A stretch of 32,883 nucleotides of DNA. Source: a virus (lineage: Duplodnaviria; Heunggongvirae; Uroviricota; Caudoviricetes). Of the stretch, positions 5,624 to 32,883 are shown in pieces. The stretch is from the IMG/VR virus record IMGVR_UViG_2802429220_000015; one strand, given 5' to 3'. How positions within the stretch are numbered: position 1 is the stretch's first letter; each line of letters starts with the position of its first letter. The translations under genes and the position numbers were made by a program. The notes beneath the pieces were generated by a model, which saw nothing but the letters and a program-made list of their open reading frames with translations, was not told the origin of the DNA and searched no databases.

Positions 5624-5629
5624 GGAGAA

Positions 5630-6022
5630 ATGAAAATGAGCGTTACCGTTATCAATGAAATGCTTGGGTGTAAATTCGATAAGGTGTTTACGAATCAAAG
5701 CGCCGAACTTGTTTTTTGTGGTGAACGCCATGGGGATGGCTGGGGTGTTGTATTTACGTTTTTCCACTTTCAGGAATGTTGTGAAAACGTCTGGATTGAA
5801 GACATTGTTGGCGACCTGACAGACCTGGAAGGAGCTGTTCTCACCGAAGCGGAAGTTGTAACTGAATCCAGTGATACAGAAAACGGTAGCCAGACGTGGT
5901 CATTCTTTAAGTTCGGGACATCAAAAGGTTGTGTCGTTGTCAGATGGTGCGGTGAAAGTAATGGTTTTTATTCCGAGCGAGTTTCGCTGAAGCAGCAATT
6001 AACTGACGTTCTGGATTTTTAA
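5630..6022 (+). CDS. Hypothetical acidic, Cys/His-containing protein (accessory)
   Basis: 130-aa ORF; visibly more AT-rich than flanking genes; acidic stretch EDIVGDLTDLEGAVLTEAEVVTESSDTENG. By my base counting the ATG is at 5629 and there is a 1-nt mismatch with the track frame; track coordinates used. Confidence 0.55.
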   Translation: MKMSVTVINEMLGCKFDKVFTNQSAELVFCGERHGDGWGVVFTFFHFQECCENVWIEDIVGDLTDLEGAVLTEAEVVTESSDTENGSQTWSFFKFGTSKGCVVVRWCGESNGFYSERVSLKQQLTDVLDF

Positions 6023-6043
6023 TTCTTATTCATGACTTTTTAT

Positions 6044-6073
6044 GCCGCAGGTAAACAGGTCTGCGCCTGAATC
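6044..6073 (+). repeat. Intercistronic stem-loop element, degenerate copy (CGCAG-GTAAACAGGT-CTGCG + CCTGAATC)
   Basis: Shares GTAAAC in the loop region and CGCCTGAATC with the two 38-nt copies; followed by AAGAGGA and the ATG at 6088. Confidence 0.6.
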
Positions 6074-6087
6074 AAGAGGATTTGTAT

Positions 6088-6633
6088 ATGAAAGATAAAG
6101 TCTGGGATTTTATTGTTACTCCTGAAGGTTTTGCTACCCGTTCATCTGAGAAATTAACCAATGTAACGTTATGGGCGTCATCATTGCTGGGCCATCTGGG
6201 AGCACCTGCCGATTTTATGCATGTGGTACTTGATGCGCAGATTGCCGGAAATGCTGTGGCCAGTAAGGGGGCTTATATTCAGGGGGATTTGTTCGCCATG
6301 ATGGCGAATGACACAGCAGCGCTGTATATCGCCACACGGAACATGCTGACAAGAATATCCATGCTGTCTGACTGTAAGGATATGGAAGACCTCGCATACA
6401 TCCTTGAAGATGATTTGCTCACTATTTCAGGTGTGCAGGAATCCCTCCCGCGTCAGTTGCGGTTTATTGACCTGATGGAGTCATATAAAGATAAGCCTGA
6501 TTTTTTTCAGATTCGATTCAGTGGAATGGAACTGCTGGATGAATATTATCCGCTGGATTCGATTTCCCGTGATGTGAAGGCGTTCGTAAAGTCTGTTGAC
6601 CGCCATTACCGGAAAGCTGAACGTCGTAGTTAA
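6088..6633 (+). CDS. Hypothetical protein (accessory)
   Basis: Track ORF starts at a TTG at 6082; the ATG at 6088 has AAGAGGA 7 nt upstream. AT-rich relative to neighbours. Confidence 0.55.
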   Translation: MKDKVWDFIVTPEGFATRSSEKLTNVTLWASSLLGHLGAPADFMHVVLDAQIAGNAVASKGAYIQGDLFAMMANDTAALYIATRNMLTRISMLSDCKDMEDLAYILEDDLLTISGVQESLPRQLRFIDLMESYKDKPDFFQIRFSGMELLDEYYPLDSISRDVKAFVKSVDRHYRKAERRS

Positions 6634-20497: not shown

Positions 20498-20839
20498 ATG
20501 GAAAAGGTGATTGAAATTACCGCCCGCCGTGAAGGTTTTCGCCGCTGCGGTGTGGCGCACAGTGCAACCACGAAGGCATGGCCTGCGGATGCGTTCACCC
20601 CGGAACAGCTGGCGGTGCTGAAGGCTGACCCCATGCTGATTGTGGTGGAGCGCGATAAAGCGTCCGGCCAGAACGACGCGCTCCGGGGTGATGAACTGGC
20701 CGCACAGCTTGATGCCGAGCGTCAGAAAGTCAGCGAACTGACGGCGCAACTGGAAGAAGAGCGCCAGAAAGTCAGTGAACTGACCGCACGGCTGAACGCC
20801 GCACAGAAAACACAAAAAGCGGACAAAAAGGAGAAGTAA
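20498..20839 (+). CDS. Hypothetical protein with C-terminal coiled-coil tandem repeat
   Basis: 113-aa product; two 14-aa repeats ERQKVSELTAQLEE / ERQKVSELTARLNA encoded by an imperfect 42-nt tandem DNA repeat. Confidence 0.55.
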   Translation: MEKVIEITARREGFRRCGVAHSATTKAWPADAFTPEQLAVLKADPMLIVVERDKASGQNDALRGDELAAQLDAERQKVSELTAQLEEERQKVSELTARLNAAQKTQKADKKEK

Positions 20840-20842
20840 CCC

Positions 20843-21274
20843 ATGTCTTACGCCACACCGGAACAGTTCATCAGGGCGTTCAGTGAACGCGAGGCACGCA
20901 CACTGACGGATGAAGACATGACGGGATTCATCGACGAAGAAAAGCTGGCCTCCGCGCTTGCGCGTGCCAGTGCCCAGATTGATGGCTATCTGGTGGGGCG
21001 TTACCGGACCCCGTGGCCTGACAGCCCGGGGATTCTGGTGGGTTACTGCTGCGATATCGCCCGTTATCACCTGGCGACCGATTACCGTATCTGCTCAGAA
21101 GAAATTCAGATGCGCTACCGGGACGCCATCCGCTTTCTGGAGAAAGTCGCGGCAGGACAAATCAACCTCGGACGGGATACGTCCGGCAGCGTGATCCAGT
21201 CATCGTCACAGGTGCGTATCCGCTCCGGCTCCCGTCAGTTCGGGCGTGAGTCCACGCGGGGAGGTGCATTCTGA
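20843..21274 (+). CDS. Mu gp36-like protein (DUF1320-like)
   Basis: 143-aa product; features such as AQIDGYLVGRY and CCDIARYHLA fit my recollection of the gp36 family. Confidence 0.72.
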   Translation: MSYATPEQFIRAFSEREARTLTDEDMTGFIDEEKLASALARASAQIDGYLVGRYRTPWPDSPGILVGYCCDIARYHLATDYRICSEEIQMRYRDAIRFLEKVAAGQINLGRDTSGSVIQSSSQVRIRSGSRQFGRESTRGGAF

Positions 21275-21327
21275 TTACTGAAATTGAACGGGCGCTGGTT
21301 GAGCGTCTGCGCTGTGGTCTGGGGCAT

Positions 21328-21924
21328 ATGGTGCAGGATGTCCGCACCTATGCCGGTGAACTGGATGAAGACCCGGGCCGGATTGTTCGCAGCCTTCCGG
21401 CAGCCTGGGTGACGTTCGGCGGCATCGTGAAAACCGAACGCTATTCCACGTCACGCCGGAAATACATTGCCACCGGACGCTTTGTGGTTGTGGTGGGTGA
21501 TTACAACACCCGCAGCGAACAGAGCGCCAGACAGGGAGGCACCGTCCGGGATGAAGTCGGGACAAACCTGCTGGTTGAATCCGTCCGCCGTCTGCTGACC
21601 GGTCAGGATTTGGGGCTGGAGATTGATTATTTCGAACCCGGGCGGGTCAGGACGCTGTTTAACACCGGCGTGGCAGAGCGGGCAATGTCCGTATTTGCCT
21701 GTGAGTTCGATACCCGCTGGGTGGAGCACGCGCTGGAGAACGGCAAATGGCCGGAGCGCGGCGCAGAAGCGGACCGCCTCTTCAACCGCTACCACGGCAG
21801 GCTGTCAGACCCTGACCCGGAACTGCTGAACCTTGGCATCCTGTACCAGATGCAGGACAGCGACGCTGAAATATCAGGGCTGACTGAATTAAGAGAGCAA
21901 CAGCATGAACAAAATGAAGGTTAA
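21328..21924 (+). CDS. Mu gp37-like protein (DUF1834-like)
   Basis: Track ORF from the first in-frame ATG; the in-frame upstream sequence (ITEIERALVERLRCGLGH) looks like the conserved N-terminus of this family, so the true start may be at about 21274 (see findings). Confidence 0.7.
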   Translation: MVQDVRTYAGELDEDPGRIVRSLPAAWVTFGGIVKTERYSTSRRKYIATGRFVVVVGDYNTRSEQSARQGGTVRDEVGTNLLVESVRRLLTGQDLGLEIDYFEPGRVRTLFNTGVAERAMSVFACEFDTRWVEHALENGKWPERGAEADRLFNRYHGRLSDPDPELLNLGILYQMQDSDAEISGLTELREQQHEQNEG

Positions 21925-22147
21925 GGCGGCTCCCGGGATGAAGTTCCCGATGGAGGATAACGCCCGGAAATACATCACCACGGAAGCAGTGACCGTTGAG
22001 AACACCGCTTATTACCGGCGCGCCGTTCAGGACGGTGACCTGATTCTGGTGAAGGATGAGCCTGAAACCACCGTGACGGCTGAACAGGACGCCGTGCAGG
22101 TAAAAGCGAAGGCGAAGAGAGAGAAACAGGTGGATTCCGATGAGTGA
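21905..22147 (+). CDS. Mu gp38-like protein (DUF2635-like)
   Basis: 80-aa product MNKMKVKAAPGMKFPMEDNARKYITTEAVTVENTAYYRRAVQDGDLILV; small gene immediately before the sheath gene. Confidence 0.6.
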   Translation: MNKMKVKAAPGMKFPMEDNARKYITTEAVTVENTAYYRRAVQDGDLILVKDEPETTVTAEQDAVQVKAKAKREKQVDSDE

Positions 22148-23561
22148 AATTCAGTTTGACACCATTTCGGGCGGCATCCGTAAGCCCGGTGTGCATTTTG
22201 AGTTCAATACCCGGCTGGCCGTTAACACGCTGCCGGGTAACGAACAGCGTGTTCTGGTGATTGGCCCGATGCTGTCAGGCGGCACCGCCACGCCCCTGAA
22301 TGCGGTTTCCGTGTATTCCGAAGACGAAGCGGATTTGTATTTCGGGGCCGGTTCGCTGGCCGCTGCAATGGCGCGCGCGGCTATTAATGCCAACAGCTAT
22401 CTGCAACTGGATGTTATCGGTATTGCAGACAGTGGCGCAGGAAAGGCAGCAACCGGCGCGGTTACCGTCAGCGGTACGGCAATCAGCAGCGGCACACTGT
22501 CGGTATGGGTTGCTGGTGAGCAGGTCACGGTGGATGTGGAAACCGGCGATGAACCGTCGAAAATCATTCCTGCACTGGTGGAGGCAATGACGCAGACGCC
22601 ATCGCTTCTGGTCACGGGGGAATACAAATCAGAAGCCTCTCAGCTGACGGTGACCACCCGGACCAAAGGAGCCTGGGGGAATGACATTACCCTGTCAGCA
22701 TCCACCACGGCAGGTGGTCTGACCGTGAGCGCCACGCCGATGGCGAACGGTGAAATGGACCCGGATATTCAGCCCGCACTGGATGCGGTCTTTGCCGCCG
22801 GTCACAACATTCTGATTTGTCCGTTCAGTACCACGCCAGCCCTTGCCGCCCTGAAGCAGCATCTGGAGAAAACCGGGAACGCGATGGAACAGCGCGGCGC
22901 GATTGGCTGTGCGGGCTGGACGGGCAGTCTCGGAAACGGGATCACCCTGGCAGCCGGTGTGAACAGCGGGCGCGTGTCCGTCCCCTGGTATCGCGGCTCC
23001 GTGAAGCTGCCAGCGGTACTGGCTGCCATCTACGGCGCTGTGATGGCGGGCGAGGAAGACCCGGCGCGTCCGCTGAACTCGCTGGCGCTGTCCGGGCTGG
23101 ATGTGGTCGCCATGTCACAGCGTGAAAGCCGTAACGAGCAGGAAAACGCCCTGCATAACGGCCTGACGCCGGTTGAGGTTGGCCCGGGTAACACGGTGCA
23201 GATTGTGCGTGCGGTCAGTACGTACACGGTTAACGCACAGGGCGTGACTGACGTCTCGTTACTGGATATCACGTCCATCAGAACGCTGGACTACACCCGC
23301 AAGGCGTGCCGCGAACGCATCAGCCTTCGCTTCCCGCGCGAAAAACTCAGCACCCGCACTATCGCAAAAGTGGAAAGCGAACTGTATGACGTGCTGATTA
23401 AGCTGGAGGAAGCGGAAATTCTGGAGAACGTGGAAGCGAACAAGGCAAAGCTGCGCGTTCAGCGAAACGGGAAAGATGCAAACCGTCTCGACTGCGTGGT
23501 TCCGGCGGATGTGGTTAACGGCCTGCATGTGTTTGCCGGTCGCATCGACATGATTTTGTAA
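22140..23561 (+). CDS. Tail sheath protein (Mu L-like)
   Basis: 473-aa product in the conserved position before the tube gene. Confidence 0.88.
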   Translation: MSEIQFDTISGGIRKPGVHFEFNTRLAVNTLPGNEQRVLVIGPMLSGGTATPLNAVSVYSEDEADLYFGAGSLAAAMARAAINANSYLQLDVIGIADSGAGKAATGAVTVSGTAISSGTLSVWVAGEQVTVDVETGDEPSKIIPALVEAMTQTPSLLVTGEYKSEASQLTVTTRTKGAWGNDITLSASTTAGGLTVSATPMANGEMDPDIQPALDAVFAAGHNILICPFSTTPALAALKQHLEKTGNAMEQRGAIGCAGWTGSLGNGITLAAGVNSGRVSVPWYRGSVKLPAVLAAIYGAVMAGEEDPARPLNSLALSGLDVVAMSQRESRNEQENALHNGLTPVEVGPGNTVQIVRAVSTYTVNAQGVTDVSLLDITSIRTLDYTRKACRERISLRFPREKLSTRTIAKVESELYDVLIKLEEAEILENVEANKAKLRVQRNGKDANRLDCVVPADVVNGLHVFAGRIDMIL

Positions 23562-24342: not shown

Positions 24343-24501
24343 ATGACCATGAGCCGTCCCGAGCTGGACGGCTGGCTTGCCGCCGTTGACAGGCTGAACG
24401 GCGGCGGTTCAGGAAGAAAGGACACCTCACAGACCACCCGCCAGTCATTTAAATCCCTCAGAAAGAAACGCAGAAAAGGTAAGCAGAAAAATGGCCGGTA
24501 A
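24343..24501 (+). CDS. Small basic ORF in the -1 frame; possible frameshift extension of the chaperone
   Basis: 52-codon ORF not in the track (under 60 aa); the same reading frame is open from about 24223, overlapping the chaperone 3' end; ends inside the tape measure gene start. Confidence 0.3.
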   Translation: MTMSRPELDGWLAAVDRLNGGGSGRKDTSQTTRQSFKSLRKKRRKGKQKNGR

Positions 24502-26731
24502 TTTCAAAGTTGGCATGACCCTGACTGCGAAGGACGAAGCCTCGCAGGTTCTGGAAAAGGGACAAAAACAGGTTATCAAAGCCACCGAAGGTGTAACAAA
24601 GGCAACACGGAAGGCAGGCGCAGAGCAGAAGCGTACCGAGCAGGAAAGCATTAACAGCACGAAAAAGGCCGCAAAAGAGATACAGCGTGCCGCCCGTGCC
24701 CGGGAAACGCTCGGTATTCGTGCAGAACGTGAAATCCGGCGTGAAATTTATCAGACAGTTGCCAGCTATAACCGTCTGGCCCGCGCCGGTTTTGAATCTG
24801 CGCAGGAGCAGGAGCGCGCCATGCAGGCCGCCCGGGAAAAAGCCCGGGCACTCAAGCGTGAACTGGATGGCGTCACTCAGGCTCAGATGAAGATGGCGAA
24901 AACACCTGTTATCCCGGAGCCGGGGCGTTTTGCACGTGCGGCAGCATTTGGCGGGAATGCCGTGACAATAGGTGGTGGTATCGCGGCAGGTGCTGCCATT
25001 ATGGCGCAGCCGGTCAAAAAGCAGATGAGCTACGAACGCCAGCTGGCAATGATGGCCAATACCGCCTTCAGTGATGGCGGACTGGAGGGGCGCAAAGCCG
25101 GTCTTGAGCAGATGAAAAGCAGCATCCGTAACGCGGTGACCTATGGTGGCGGCACAAAAGAGGATGCAGCCGAAACACTGGATGCCCTGCTGAAAGATGG
25201 CGGTATTTCATTTGACACAGCCAGCAAGTGGCTGCCTGAACTGATGAAATACGCCACGGCTTCCGGTGCATCAGCGACAGACCTGGCTAATGTGATGCTT
25301 AAGGGCAAAAAGACTTTTGGATTCAGGGATGAAGATATTTCCACCGTTCTGAATATGGCAATTGCAGCGGGCAAAGAAGGCAGCTTTGAACTGAGCGACA
25401 TGGCCCGATGGTTATCTTCGCAACTGGGGTCAGCGTCAGCTGCGGGGATGAAAGGCAAAGATGATTTCGTCAAGATTCTGGCACTGAATGAAGCTGCTGC
25501 CATCACGGCGGGAAGCAGTGATGAGGCCGGAAATAACGTGTTTAACCTGCTGGCTAAACTGACCAGCCACGATATTGAAACAGCGGCAAAGAGCATTGAT
25601 TACAACGGTAAAGGAATTGATTTTTCCGGTACGCTGGTTCAGGCGCGCGAGCATGGGCTTGATCCGATAGATGCGCTGTCCAGCCTGATAGACAAAATCG
25701 TTGCCAGCGATAAACGCTTTCAGGAGTTGCAAAAGAAACTGGCCTCCGCCCGGGATAAAGGTGAGCAGACGGCTGTTTACGATTCGATGGCAAAACTCCT
25801 TGAAGGCTTTGGTGTCGGGAAACTGGTTGCAGACCAACAGGCGTTAAAAGCGTTGCTGGCTTACCGTAACAACCCTGAATACCGCAAGAAGGTTGAAGAT
25901 GCGGTTAATCAGCAGCGCACCCTGCCGGAAGGTCAGCGCGCGGGTGATGTGGATTTTAACTTCATATCCGGCCTCAATGACTTTAAAACCGAACAGGCTA
26001 AAAACACGCTTGAATTTTCACAAATGGATGGTGTGAAAAAACTGGCTGATGCATCCGGGACTGTGGCCGATGCCATAAGCTGGGCGGGTGAAAAATTTCC
26101 GGGGCTGACCACAGCAGTGGTGACAGCTACCACAGCCATTAAAGCGATGACAGCAGCGGCCGTCACGTTTGCGGGGCTGAAACTTATTACCGGTAATCCA
26201 GTGTCCGGAGGAGCAGATAAGCCCGATGATACTGGGGATACTGCATCCAAAGTTAAAGATATCAGTGAAGTCGCTTCCGGCAATCAGGGACGTCTGGGAA
26301 AAATAATGGGCGCTGCCGGAAAAATTGCAACCATTTACGCAGGCTATGAGGCCGCAGAAGAACTTTATGGGGCTGTTGTTGGCGATACCATCAAGAACTT
26401 TACAGATAATCATGGTTTGTTTTTTGCAGACGATGGCTCCTTGTTCTTTACCCGTGAAGGAATGCTTAAACGGGATAATGAGCTGAAAGCCGCAGCTGAT
26501 GCTCTGCCATCACCGGAGCAGGTGAACACAGCCGCCGGAAACACAACGCCTGAATCAGCATCAAAGCAACCCGGACGCATCACCCAGCCGGAATACCTCA
26601 CGCACTGGGGACCACCTGCCAGCCCCATTAATTTCACCACACAACTGGTGCTCGATGGTCAGGTCGTGGCGGAGGCAGTGAACAAATACAACCTTCAGGA
26701 CGGCAACAGAGGCACGGGAGGAACTTACTGA
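24491..26731 (+). CDS. Tail tape measure protein
   Basis: 746-aa Ala/Gly-rich product with long helical regions; position after the chaperone. Confidence 0.9.
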   Translation: MAGNFKVGMTLTAKDEASQVLEKGQKQVIKATEGVTKATRKAGAEQKRTEQESINSTKKAAKEIQRAARARETLGIRAEREIRREIYQTVASYNRLARAGFESAQEQERAMQAAREKARALKRELDGVTQAQMKMAKTPVIPEPGRFARAAAFGGNAVTIGGGIAAGAAIMAQPVKKQMSYERQLAMMANTAFSDGGLEGRKAGLEQMKSSIRNAVTYGGGTKEDAAETLDALLKDGGISFDTASKWLPELMKYATASGASATDLANVMLKGKKTFGFRDEDISTVLNMAIAAGKEGSFELSDMARWLSSQLGSASAAGMKGKDDFVKILALNEAAAITAGSSDEAGNNVFNLLAKLTSHDIETAAKSIDYNGKGIDFSGTLVQAREHGLDPIDALSSLIDKIVASDKRFQELQKKLASARDKGEQTAVYDSMAKLLEGFGVGKLVADQQALKALLAYRNNPEYRKKVEDAVNQQRTLPEGQRAGDVDFNFISGLNDFKTEQAKNTLEFSQMDGVKKLADASGTVADAISWAGEKFPGLTTAVVTATTAIKAMTAAAVTFAGLKLITGNPVSGGADKPDDTGDTASKVKDISEVASGNQGRLGKIMGAAGKIATIYAGYEAAEELYGAVVGDTIKNFTDNHGLFFADDGSLFFTREGMLKRDNELKAAADALPSPEQVNTAAGNTTPESASKQPGRITQPEYLTHWGPPASPINFTTQLVLDGQVVAEAVNKYNLQDGNRGTGGTY

Positions 26732-32805: not shown

Positions 32806-32883
32806 ATGGAACTCAGAAACGTCAGTAAGCGACTCGTCAGAACCGTATTGATATTTACTGAGAGCTCAGATCAACTTTCCAGG
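32806..32883 (+). CDS. Start of next tail gene, truncated by the window edge
   Basis: ATG preceded by TAAGGAGA; 26 codons (MELRNVSKRLVRTVLIFTESSDQLS...) run to the window end. Confidence 0.4.
   Translation, partial: MELRNVSKRLVRTVLIFTESSDQLSR

Follow-up and report, generated by a model that had tools for sequence, protein, structure and literature searches.

A CTG codon as the probable start of the tail-terminator gene in an Escherichia-associated Mu-like prophage

Background

CTG start codons have been verified for the Escherichia coli genes hda and yfjD (PMC3531124). The rep gene of FIB replicons also begins with CTG; together with a good ribosome-binding site (RBS), this codon keeps expression low, and annotations usually place the start, wrongly, at a canonical codon further downstream (PMC11983097). 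CUG yields approximately 1–2% of the expression obtained with AUG when tested in E. coli reporters, while UUG belongs to the group that reaches 10–100%; genome-wide, approximately 3–4% of genes start with TTG (bioRxiv 10.1101/063800). Here we describe a gene of this kind in a stretch of viral DNA of 32,883 nucleotides (nt), IMG/VR record IMGVR_UViG_2802429220_000015 (Caudoviricetes), which is referred to as the window in its entirety. An original prediction, made from the letters of the window and a list of its open reading frames (ORFs), had noticed that the gp37-like gene lacks a canonical start codon where its conserved N-terminus seems to begin. Our analysis makes it likely that the coding sequence (CDS) of this tail-terminator gene starts at the CTG at 21271–21273 and not at the ATG at 21328, that the CTG was formerly a TTG, and that CUG initiation is driven by a strong Shine-Dalgarno (SD) sequence and coupled to translation of the upstream gene gp36.

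Results and discussion

Structure of the gp36/gp37 junction

The gp36-family head-tail adaptor gene occupies positions 20843–21274 of the plus strand, on which the gp37 gene and its signals also lie. It encodes 143 amino acids (aa) and matches PF07030 (114.5 bits) and PHROG_195 (‘head-tail adaptor’); in RefSeq, the Prokaryotic Genome Annotation Pipeline (PGAP) names its product ‘gp436 family protein’. The gp37 frame begins behind an in-frame TGA at 21247–21249 and continues with GTC CAC GCG GGG AGG TGC ATT CTG ATT ACT GAA ATT GAA. Its translation from 21250 is VHAGRCILITEIERALVERLRCGLGH, followed by the Met of the ATG at 21328–21330, which is the first canonical start codon. Direct reading of the sequence thus verified that the frame is open from 21250 and contains no ATG, GTG or TTG before 21328. 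The strong SD sequence that had been reported for this site, GGGGAGGTG at 21258–21266, was also confirmed: a motif search placed GGAGGTG at 21260–21266, with the GGAGG core at 21260–21264, and the motif is conserved in relatives that start with TTG.

The proposed initiation codon CTG (21271–21273) shares its last two bases with the TGA stop codon of gp36 (21272–21274). The resulting 4-nt overlap, CTGA, corresponds exactly to the ATGA arrangement that is common at stop/start junctions, and overlaps of the TTGA, ATGA or TGATG type are present in most relatives. The base that separates CTG from TTG is contained in the last sense codon of gp36, TTC (Phe, 21269–21271). Codon 2 of gp37 is ATT (Ile, 21274–21276), and the full gp37-family CDS at 21271–21924 comprises 217 aa plus the stop codon (654 nt in the PGAP annotation). 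By itself, the open frame is unremarkable, as the chance that 26 sense codons remain open before an ATG is approximately 30%, and the SD heptamer occurs in the window eight times with four occurrences expected, a frequency that is not significant. It is the homology described below, and not the open frame or the heptamer, which places the junction beyond chance.

An additional in-frame ATT at 21268–21270, absent from the original prediction, lies merely 3 nt from the SD core and was rejected as a start. Positions 21268–21276 (ATT CTG ATT) form a run of consecutive in-frame near-cognate codons located 3, 6 and 9 nt past the GGAGG core. Ribosomes could initiate at more than one of these codons, which would result in an N-terminal heterogeneity of one residue.

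The same layout could be read as a gp36-gp37 fusion that results from programmed -1 frameshifting somewhere between 21250 and 21272, for which the SD-like GGGGAGG would serve as the stimulator. This fits the position of gp37 in the -1 frame relative to gp36, open from 21250, and the presence of an SD-like element inside gp36 just upstream. However, no slippery heptamer of the form X XXY YYZ is found at the end of gp36 (GAG TCC ACG CGG GGA GGT GCA TTC TGA), an ordinary start codon (TTG or ATG) is present at the junction in relatives, and in the Mu virion gp36 and gp37 are separate proteins present in 12 and 6 copies (PMC11915804). We regard a fusion as highly improbable.

Homology of the start position

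The Pfam family PF08873 (Phage_Mu_Gp37/DUF1834) matches the gp37 product with 159.6 bits (cut-off 25), and profile positions 2–148 of 149 are aligned. The alignment opens at profile position 2, which corresponds to the Ile encoded at 21274. PHROG_490 is aligned from residue 1 (207.5 bits). A conserved family N-terminus beginning at about 21274, as had been suspected, is thus present. Nearly all of the 120 homologous proteins have a length of 212–222 aa, and they mostly begin with MITxIE or M(I/V/L)ITxIE; when the extended translation was aligned with these gp37/DUF1834 proteins, the MITxIE N-termini matched. The M-I-T-E-I-E of the homologues corresponds to L-I-T-E-I-E here, so that the Met of the family falls on the CTG at 21271 and the ATT at 21274 encodes Ile2. 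In relatives, this second codon varies between ATT, ATC and ATA, downstream of their TTG or ATG start. Because the homologues open with M-I-T-x-I-E, we place the start at CTG 21271 and not at ATT 21274. The original prediction had offered both codons and favoured ATT; homology and the SD sequence support its view that the start is non-canonical, but they do so for CTG, the ATT being codon 2.

In an alignment of 48 sequences, five of the 25 invariant columns (E6, R12, L13, G16 and G18) precede Met20, the residue encoded by ATG 21328, and Met20 itself is an internal residue conserved at 90% or more across the family. Homologues that begin at the equivalent of 21328 do exist; all are either truncated annotations of the CTG lineage or fragments (P0007, P0022, P0030, P0053 and RefSeq records), and no relative with a canonical start was found to begin there among the homologues examined. 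The gene order gp36 (PF07030, 20843–21274), gp37, DUF2635 (21905–22147) and sheath (22140–23561) is also the same in relatives. Judged by these alignments, the start position of gp37 is homologous to the canonical start of its relatives.

Origin of the CTG codon

Junction DNA of relatives was compared at 59 loci, with one genome per species. All 59 loci have a canonical start codon close to the conserved Glu, no more than a few codons away (ATG at 33, TTG at 18 and GTG at 8), and a CTG start of gp37 was not found among them. At 17 species-level loci, a TTG stands at exactly the position of the CTG, in the context GGAGG..ATT TTG ATx and with a TTGA overlap. The pattern of the closest clade is GGAGG(T/C)GC (A/G)TT TTG AT(T/C/A), in which TTGA again overlaps the gp36 stop codon; this clade includes Trabulsiella, Intestinirhabdus, Buttiauxella, Xenorhabdus, Photorhabdus, Morganella, Edwardsiella, Serratia, Yersinia, Pectobacterium and others. 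The nearest gp37 proteins outside Escherichia also use TTG (Citrobacter braakii, 87%; C. freundii, 82%; Yersinia enterocolitica, 74%), as do two metagenome contigs that rank among them.

Since the closest relatives have TTG, the CTG of the window is the product of a T-to-C transition of a TTG start codon at 21271. The exchange is silent in gp36 (TTT to TTC, both Phe) because 21271 is a third codon position in that frame. In a neighbour-joining tree of codons 2–160, all 26 unique CTG core sequences fall into a single clade with a nucleotide divergence of at most 4.5%, which is nested in the TTG clade beside the Citrobacter lineages (minimum distance 11.6%). The pattern points to a single substitution on the stem branch, which the clade has retained ever since. 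A point mutation of the start codon, as had been proposed, is therefore borne out, with the qualification that the ancestral codon was TTG and not ATG; mutation and non-canonical initiation, listed as separate explanations, are the same event. Within the set of sequences compared, the direction of the change from TTG to CTG, its fixation and the monophyly of the CTG lineage are established. The substitution itself may have been adaptive, neutral or slightly deleterious.

Distribution of the CTG lineage

Among 5,426 complete E. coli genomes, 55–56 contain the 1,082-nt gp36-gp37 region, with an identity of 90–100%. Two copies are located on plasmids, and some genomes contain two copies. CTG is present in all 11 RefSeq E. 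coli records that were sampled over this range of identity and in three further Escherichia assemblies. IMG/VR was searched with a degenerate pattern that accepts TTG or CTG, which resulted in matches on 23 contigs, 21 with CTG and two with TTG (82% and 72% identity). The gp37 genes of 20 of the 21 CTG contigs could be scored and are all at least 90% identical to that of the window; the remaining contig is truncated. A search of metagenomes with a clade-specific pattern, in which the first base of the start codon was left free, yielded 10 contigs, all of which carry C at this base. Thus, no T, A or G was detected at the equivalent of 21271 in the approximately 45 CTG-lineage sequences from RefSeq, the Escherichia assemblies, IMG/VR and the metagenomes, and CTG is, as far as these sequences reach, fixed in an Escherichia-associated clade of a Mu-like transposable prophage. 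No match to the gp36-gp37 region was obtained by megablast against 50,697 phage records, and tblastn against the phage records matched only seven distant phages, Mu not among them.

These numbers also bear on the sequencing error that the original prediction had suggested, and equally on an assembly error, with ATG or TTG as the true codon. Apart from the fact that CTG starts are rare, nothing speaks in favour of an error. The codon is identical in approximately 45 independent assemblies across laboratories, platforms and sample types, and because of this recurrence an error can be ruled out with near certainty.

The gp37 protein

An AlphaFold2 model built from the family alignment has a predicted local distance difference test (pLDDT) score of 83. 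Its first element is a helix formed by residues 2–20 (pLDDT approximately 96), the N-terminal alpha-helix of the tail-terminator fold, which is encoded at 21274–21330; a start at Met20 would remove exactly this helix. The top match in a Foldseek search was the terminator of Mu (9khy; E value 1.2e-10; template modelling (TM) score 0.70, target-normalised), and further matches were p142 of T5, followed by the collar of pyocin R2 and gpU of lambda, all with a probability of 1.00. When the PDB sequences were searched with a profile of the family, no meaningful match resulted, and the Mu terminator surfaced only by fold comparison. As modelled, gp37 has a tail-terminator fold of the lambda gpU / Mu gp37 type. 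We therefore identify the gene as that of the tail terminator, a member of the Mu gp37/K family, in a Mu-like prophage; by analogy with Mu, its product would have the role of a hexameric cap. PHROG_490 labels the family ‘portal protein’, and the RefSeq records of Haemophilus phage SuMu (NC_019455.1) and Mannheimia phage 3927AP2 (NC_028766.1) use the same name for the matching region. It appears to be a propagated misannotation, because both the predicted fold and the cryo-electron microscopy structure from Mu are those of a tail terminator.

Selection was analysed in the CTG clade with 27 haplotypes. The ratio of non-synonymous to synonymous nucleotide diversity (piN/piS) is 0.20 in codons 20–160 and 0.32 in the whole gene, which indicates that gp37 is under purifying selection, and no stop codon or frameshift in gp37 was found in the approximately 45 CTG-lineage sequences. 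This speaks to the possibility that the CTG is a lesion which abolishes or lowers the function of gp37 in a decaying prophage lineage, with little or no protein made. The activity of CUG is below that of UUG by a factor of at least about ten (bioRxiv 10.1101/063800), and further lesions do occur in some copies of the prophage, such as an insertion of an IS66-family element into the tape-measure gene of strain 08-00022. Purifying selection argues against such a lesion, as do the wide occurrence of the clade in E. coli genomes, on plasmids and on viral and metagenome contigs, and the ORFs of the window, which are long, uninterrupted and in Mu-like order. Decay of the gene is thus very unlikely.

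In the CTG clade, the C-terminal third of gp37 (approximately 21750–21924, codons approximately 160–217) varies far more than the core, with a piS of 0.27 versus 0.06, and the proteins of the clade fall into three length classes of 212, 215 and 217 aa. This variability suggests recombinational exchange of this part. In Mu, the C-terminal part of gp37 is a beta-hairpin that touches the last sheath ring (PMC11915804).

Translation initiation at the CTG codon

All seven bases of the SD motif GGAGGTG match the canonical complement of the anti-SD sequence. The predicted duplex with the 3' end of 16S rRNA has an energy of -12.3 kcal/mol, compared with -8.7 kcal/mol for the RBS of gp36 itself, -5.9 kcal/mol for that of the sheath gene and -4.7 kcal/mol for the sequence in front of ATG 21328. 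The distance from the GGAGG core is 6 nt for the CTG and 9 nt for the ATT at 21274; the optimum of SD spacing is approximately 5 nt. The original statement that the spacing suits ATT 21274 holds in so far as 9 nt is within the functional range, but the 6 nt of the CTG are at least as good. SD strength shows no difference between those enterobacterial relatives that start with TTG and those that start with ATG, and there is therefore no sign that a weak start codon is compensated by the SD sequence. TTG starts are unusually common in the enterobacterial branch of the family, with 18 of 59 loci as opposed to the 3–4% of genes given above.

Our proposed mechanism is as follows. The initiator tRNA, charged with formylmethionine (fMet), would start gp37 at the CUG at 21271, driven by the very strong SD sequence 6 nt upstream. 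The CUGA overlap would hand ribosomes that finish gp36 onto the start of gp37, either by translational coupling or by re-initiation. Output of gp37 would be low, if the reporter values of 1–2% of AUG for CUG, and of ten-fold or more above that for UUG, apply here. In the Mu virion, gp36 is a dodecameric adaptor (12 copies) and gp37 a hexameric terminator that caps tube and sheath, each of which consists of 30 hexameric rings (PMC11915804). With six copies, compared with 12 of the adaptor and 30 hexameric rings, the terminator is among the least abundant structural proteins, and a low output may be tolerable because six copies per virion suffice.

Several observations weigh against initiation at CTG as outlined here. 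The predicted mRNA folding pairs the start region more strongly in the C variant than in the T variant (probability of being unpaired 0.41 versus 0.71); if this prediction holds, initiation would depend more on ribosomes arriving from gp36. Our literature search yielded no proteomic, ribosome profiling (Ribo-seq) or mutagenesis data on CUG initiation of gp37. The lack of revertants in the CTG lineage does not show that CTG is favoured, since only about one quarter of the synonymous sites in the stretch are polymorphic. The two remaining points concern the neighbouring ATT and the N-terminal codons, and each of them leads to an alternative start.

The ATT at 21274–21276 is in frame, adjacent to the CTG and an equally strong near-cognate codon in reporters, where AUU and CUG fall into the same 1–2% class; the best-known confirmed non-canonical starts of E. 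coli, infC and pcnB, are AUU codons (bioRxiv 10.1101/063800). With 9 nt from the GGAGG core, this ATT is also inside the functional range of the SD sequence. Translation might thus begin at ATT, alone or together with CTG, and yield a product that is one residue shorter (fMet-T-E-I-E...). However, the codon is Ile2 in every relative, downstream of TTG or ATG, and varies like an ordinary Ile codon. CTG is better placed with respect to the homologous start, the 6-nt spacing and the CTGA overlap. We therefore consider a start at ATT unlikely, and its consequences would be functionally nearly identical to those of a start at CTG.

In codons 2–19, piN/piS is 0.51 and thus higher than in the core, a weak signal of selection that is based on approximately nine changes. 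This would fit a functional protein of 198 aa made from ATG 21328, with the 19 upstream codons an untranslated relic since the change from TTG to CTG. ATG 21328 is the first canonical start, and PGAP chose it in 6 of the 11 records inspected. On closer inspection, the non-synonymous changes in codons 2–19 are confined to codons 4 and 19, both of which are variable family-wide, and each of the four changes in conserved columns (codons 11, 14, 16 and 18) is synonymous; the approximately 45 sequences show no non-conservative substitution in such columns. This variation is consistent with translation of the N-terminal extension but underpowered alone, and because of the small number of changes we do not take the ratio in these codons as proof. 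A start at ATG 21328 would sacrifice the confidently modelled first helix and five invariant residues, and Met20 is internal and conserved in relatives that have upstream starts. Its SD sequence is poor, with just a GGGG at a distance of 3 nt, which is weak and badly spaced. On balance, the shorter protein is improbable, and CTG remains the start that we favour.

A different question is whether the change from TTG to CTG was non-neutral. It may have been an adaptive lowering of the terminator dosage, or CUG may be far more efficient at this site than the 1–2% measured in reporters; in the latter case, ribosomes terminating at the overlapping UGA would re-initiate with relaxed start-codon discrimination. 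We consider this rather doubtful, but if it were true, a widespread E. coli prophage would offer a natural system for studying start-codon stringency in termination-reinitiation.

Other regions of the window

The small DUF2635 gene downstream of gp37 (21905–22147) has an ambiguous start. If read from the ATG at 21905, it shares 20 nt with the end of gp37, and PGAP uses the equivalent of this codon in some records and that of an ATG at 21938 in others. Between the major head gene and gp36, the HI1506-related / FluMu_N gene (20498–20839) contains a near-duplicated coiled-coil segment, AQLDAERQKVSELTAQLEEERQKVSELTARL. The proteins of close relatives have lengths of 110, 113, 121 and 124 aa, a variation that suggests expansion and contraction of the repeat.

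In its last 60 nt (32824–32883), the window has the same sequence as the end of an ISCro1-like element of the IS66 family. In 08-00022 and in the IMG/VR contig L091, this element is inserted in the tape-measure gene at the position that corresponds to 26463–26470, with an 8-bp overlap that resembles a target duplication; in the window, the tape-measure ORF (24491–26731) is intact. The prophage of 08-00022 is 99.4–100% identical to the window and is without a cassette of approximately 1 kb in the early region (approximately 5625–6633). This cassette encodes a DUF7448 protein of 130 aa (5630–6022) and a protein of approximately 181 aa (6082–6633), for which no match was found in Pfam or PADLOC. 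It may be an accessory or ‘moron’ module.

Annotation and comparison with known systems

In the 11 RefSeq records inspected, PGAP places the start of gp37 at CTG in five and at the equivalent of ATG 21328 in the six mentioned above. One of the former, which is identical to the query across 1,082 nt, contains the 217-aa protein WP_077788439.1. The 08-00022 prophage has 50 complete CDSs, of which only gp37 begins with CTG (44 ATG, 4 GTG, 1 TTG). If CTG is the true start, approximately half of the inspected records omit 19 residues and the first helix. The literature search revealed no paper on the start codon of gp37 or on the activity of this prophage in E2348/69.

The conclusions to be drawn are modest. 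Near-cognate CUG initiation is already known, no new mechanism is involved, and the start described here is ordinary, though uncommon and weak. The main value is thus for annotation, as the error is the same as that documented for the rep gene of FIB. A smaller value lies in translation biology: the locus is a phylogenetically polarised case in which a canonical weak TTG became a non-canonical CTG by a change that leaves the product of the overlapping gene upstream unaltered, and the CTG has been retained while the phage lineage, which is apparently active, diversified. How strong SD sequences and stop/start overlaps rescue near-cognate initiation could be tested at this locus.

The gp37 (DUF1834) genes of Citrobacter, Yersinia, Trabulsiella, Xenorhabdus, Photorhabdus, Morganella, Serratia and Pectobacterium that start with TTG have the same synteny, the same GGAGG SD sequence and the start codon in the same 4-nt overlap. 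They differ in that their start is a canonical weak one (TTGA), whereas the clade of the window has CTG (CTGA). For the protein, the best structural match is Mu gp37 (gene K; PDB 9khy / 9lj8), which occupies the same position after the adaptor gp36 but shares only approximately 16% sequence identity with the gp37 described here.

The weak start of infC is autoregulatory through IF3. As proposed for gp37, the genes hda and yfjD (CTG) and infC and pcnB (AUU) have near-cognate starts, which were recognised through conservation of an N-terminal extension together with a suitable RBS (PMC3531124; bioRxiv 10.1101/063800). These four are host genes, while gp37 is a structural gene of a phage. The closest parallel is rep of the IncFIB replicons (P307, F and pO157), where the CTG start was proven by N-terminal sequencing and mutagenesis, while that of gp37 is predicted. 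In IncFIB, the CTG starts a plasmid replication initiator and is not part of a stop/start overlap, whereas the CTG of gp37 overlaps the stop codon of gp36.

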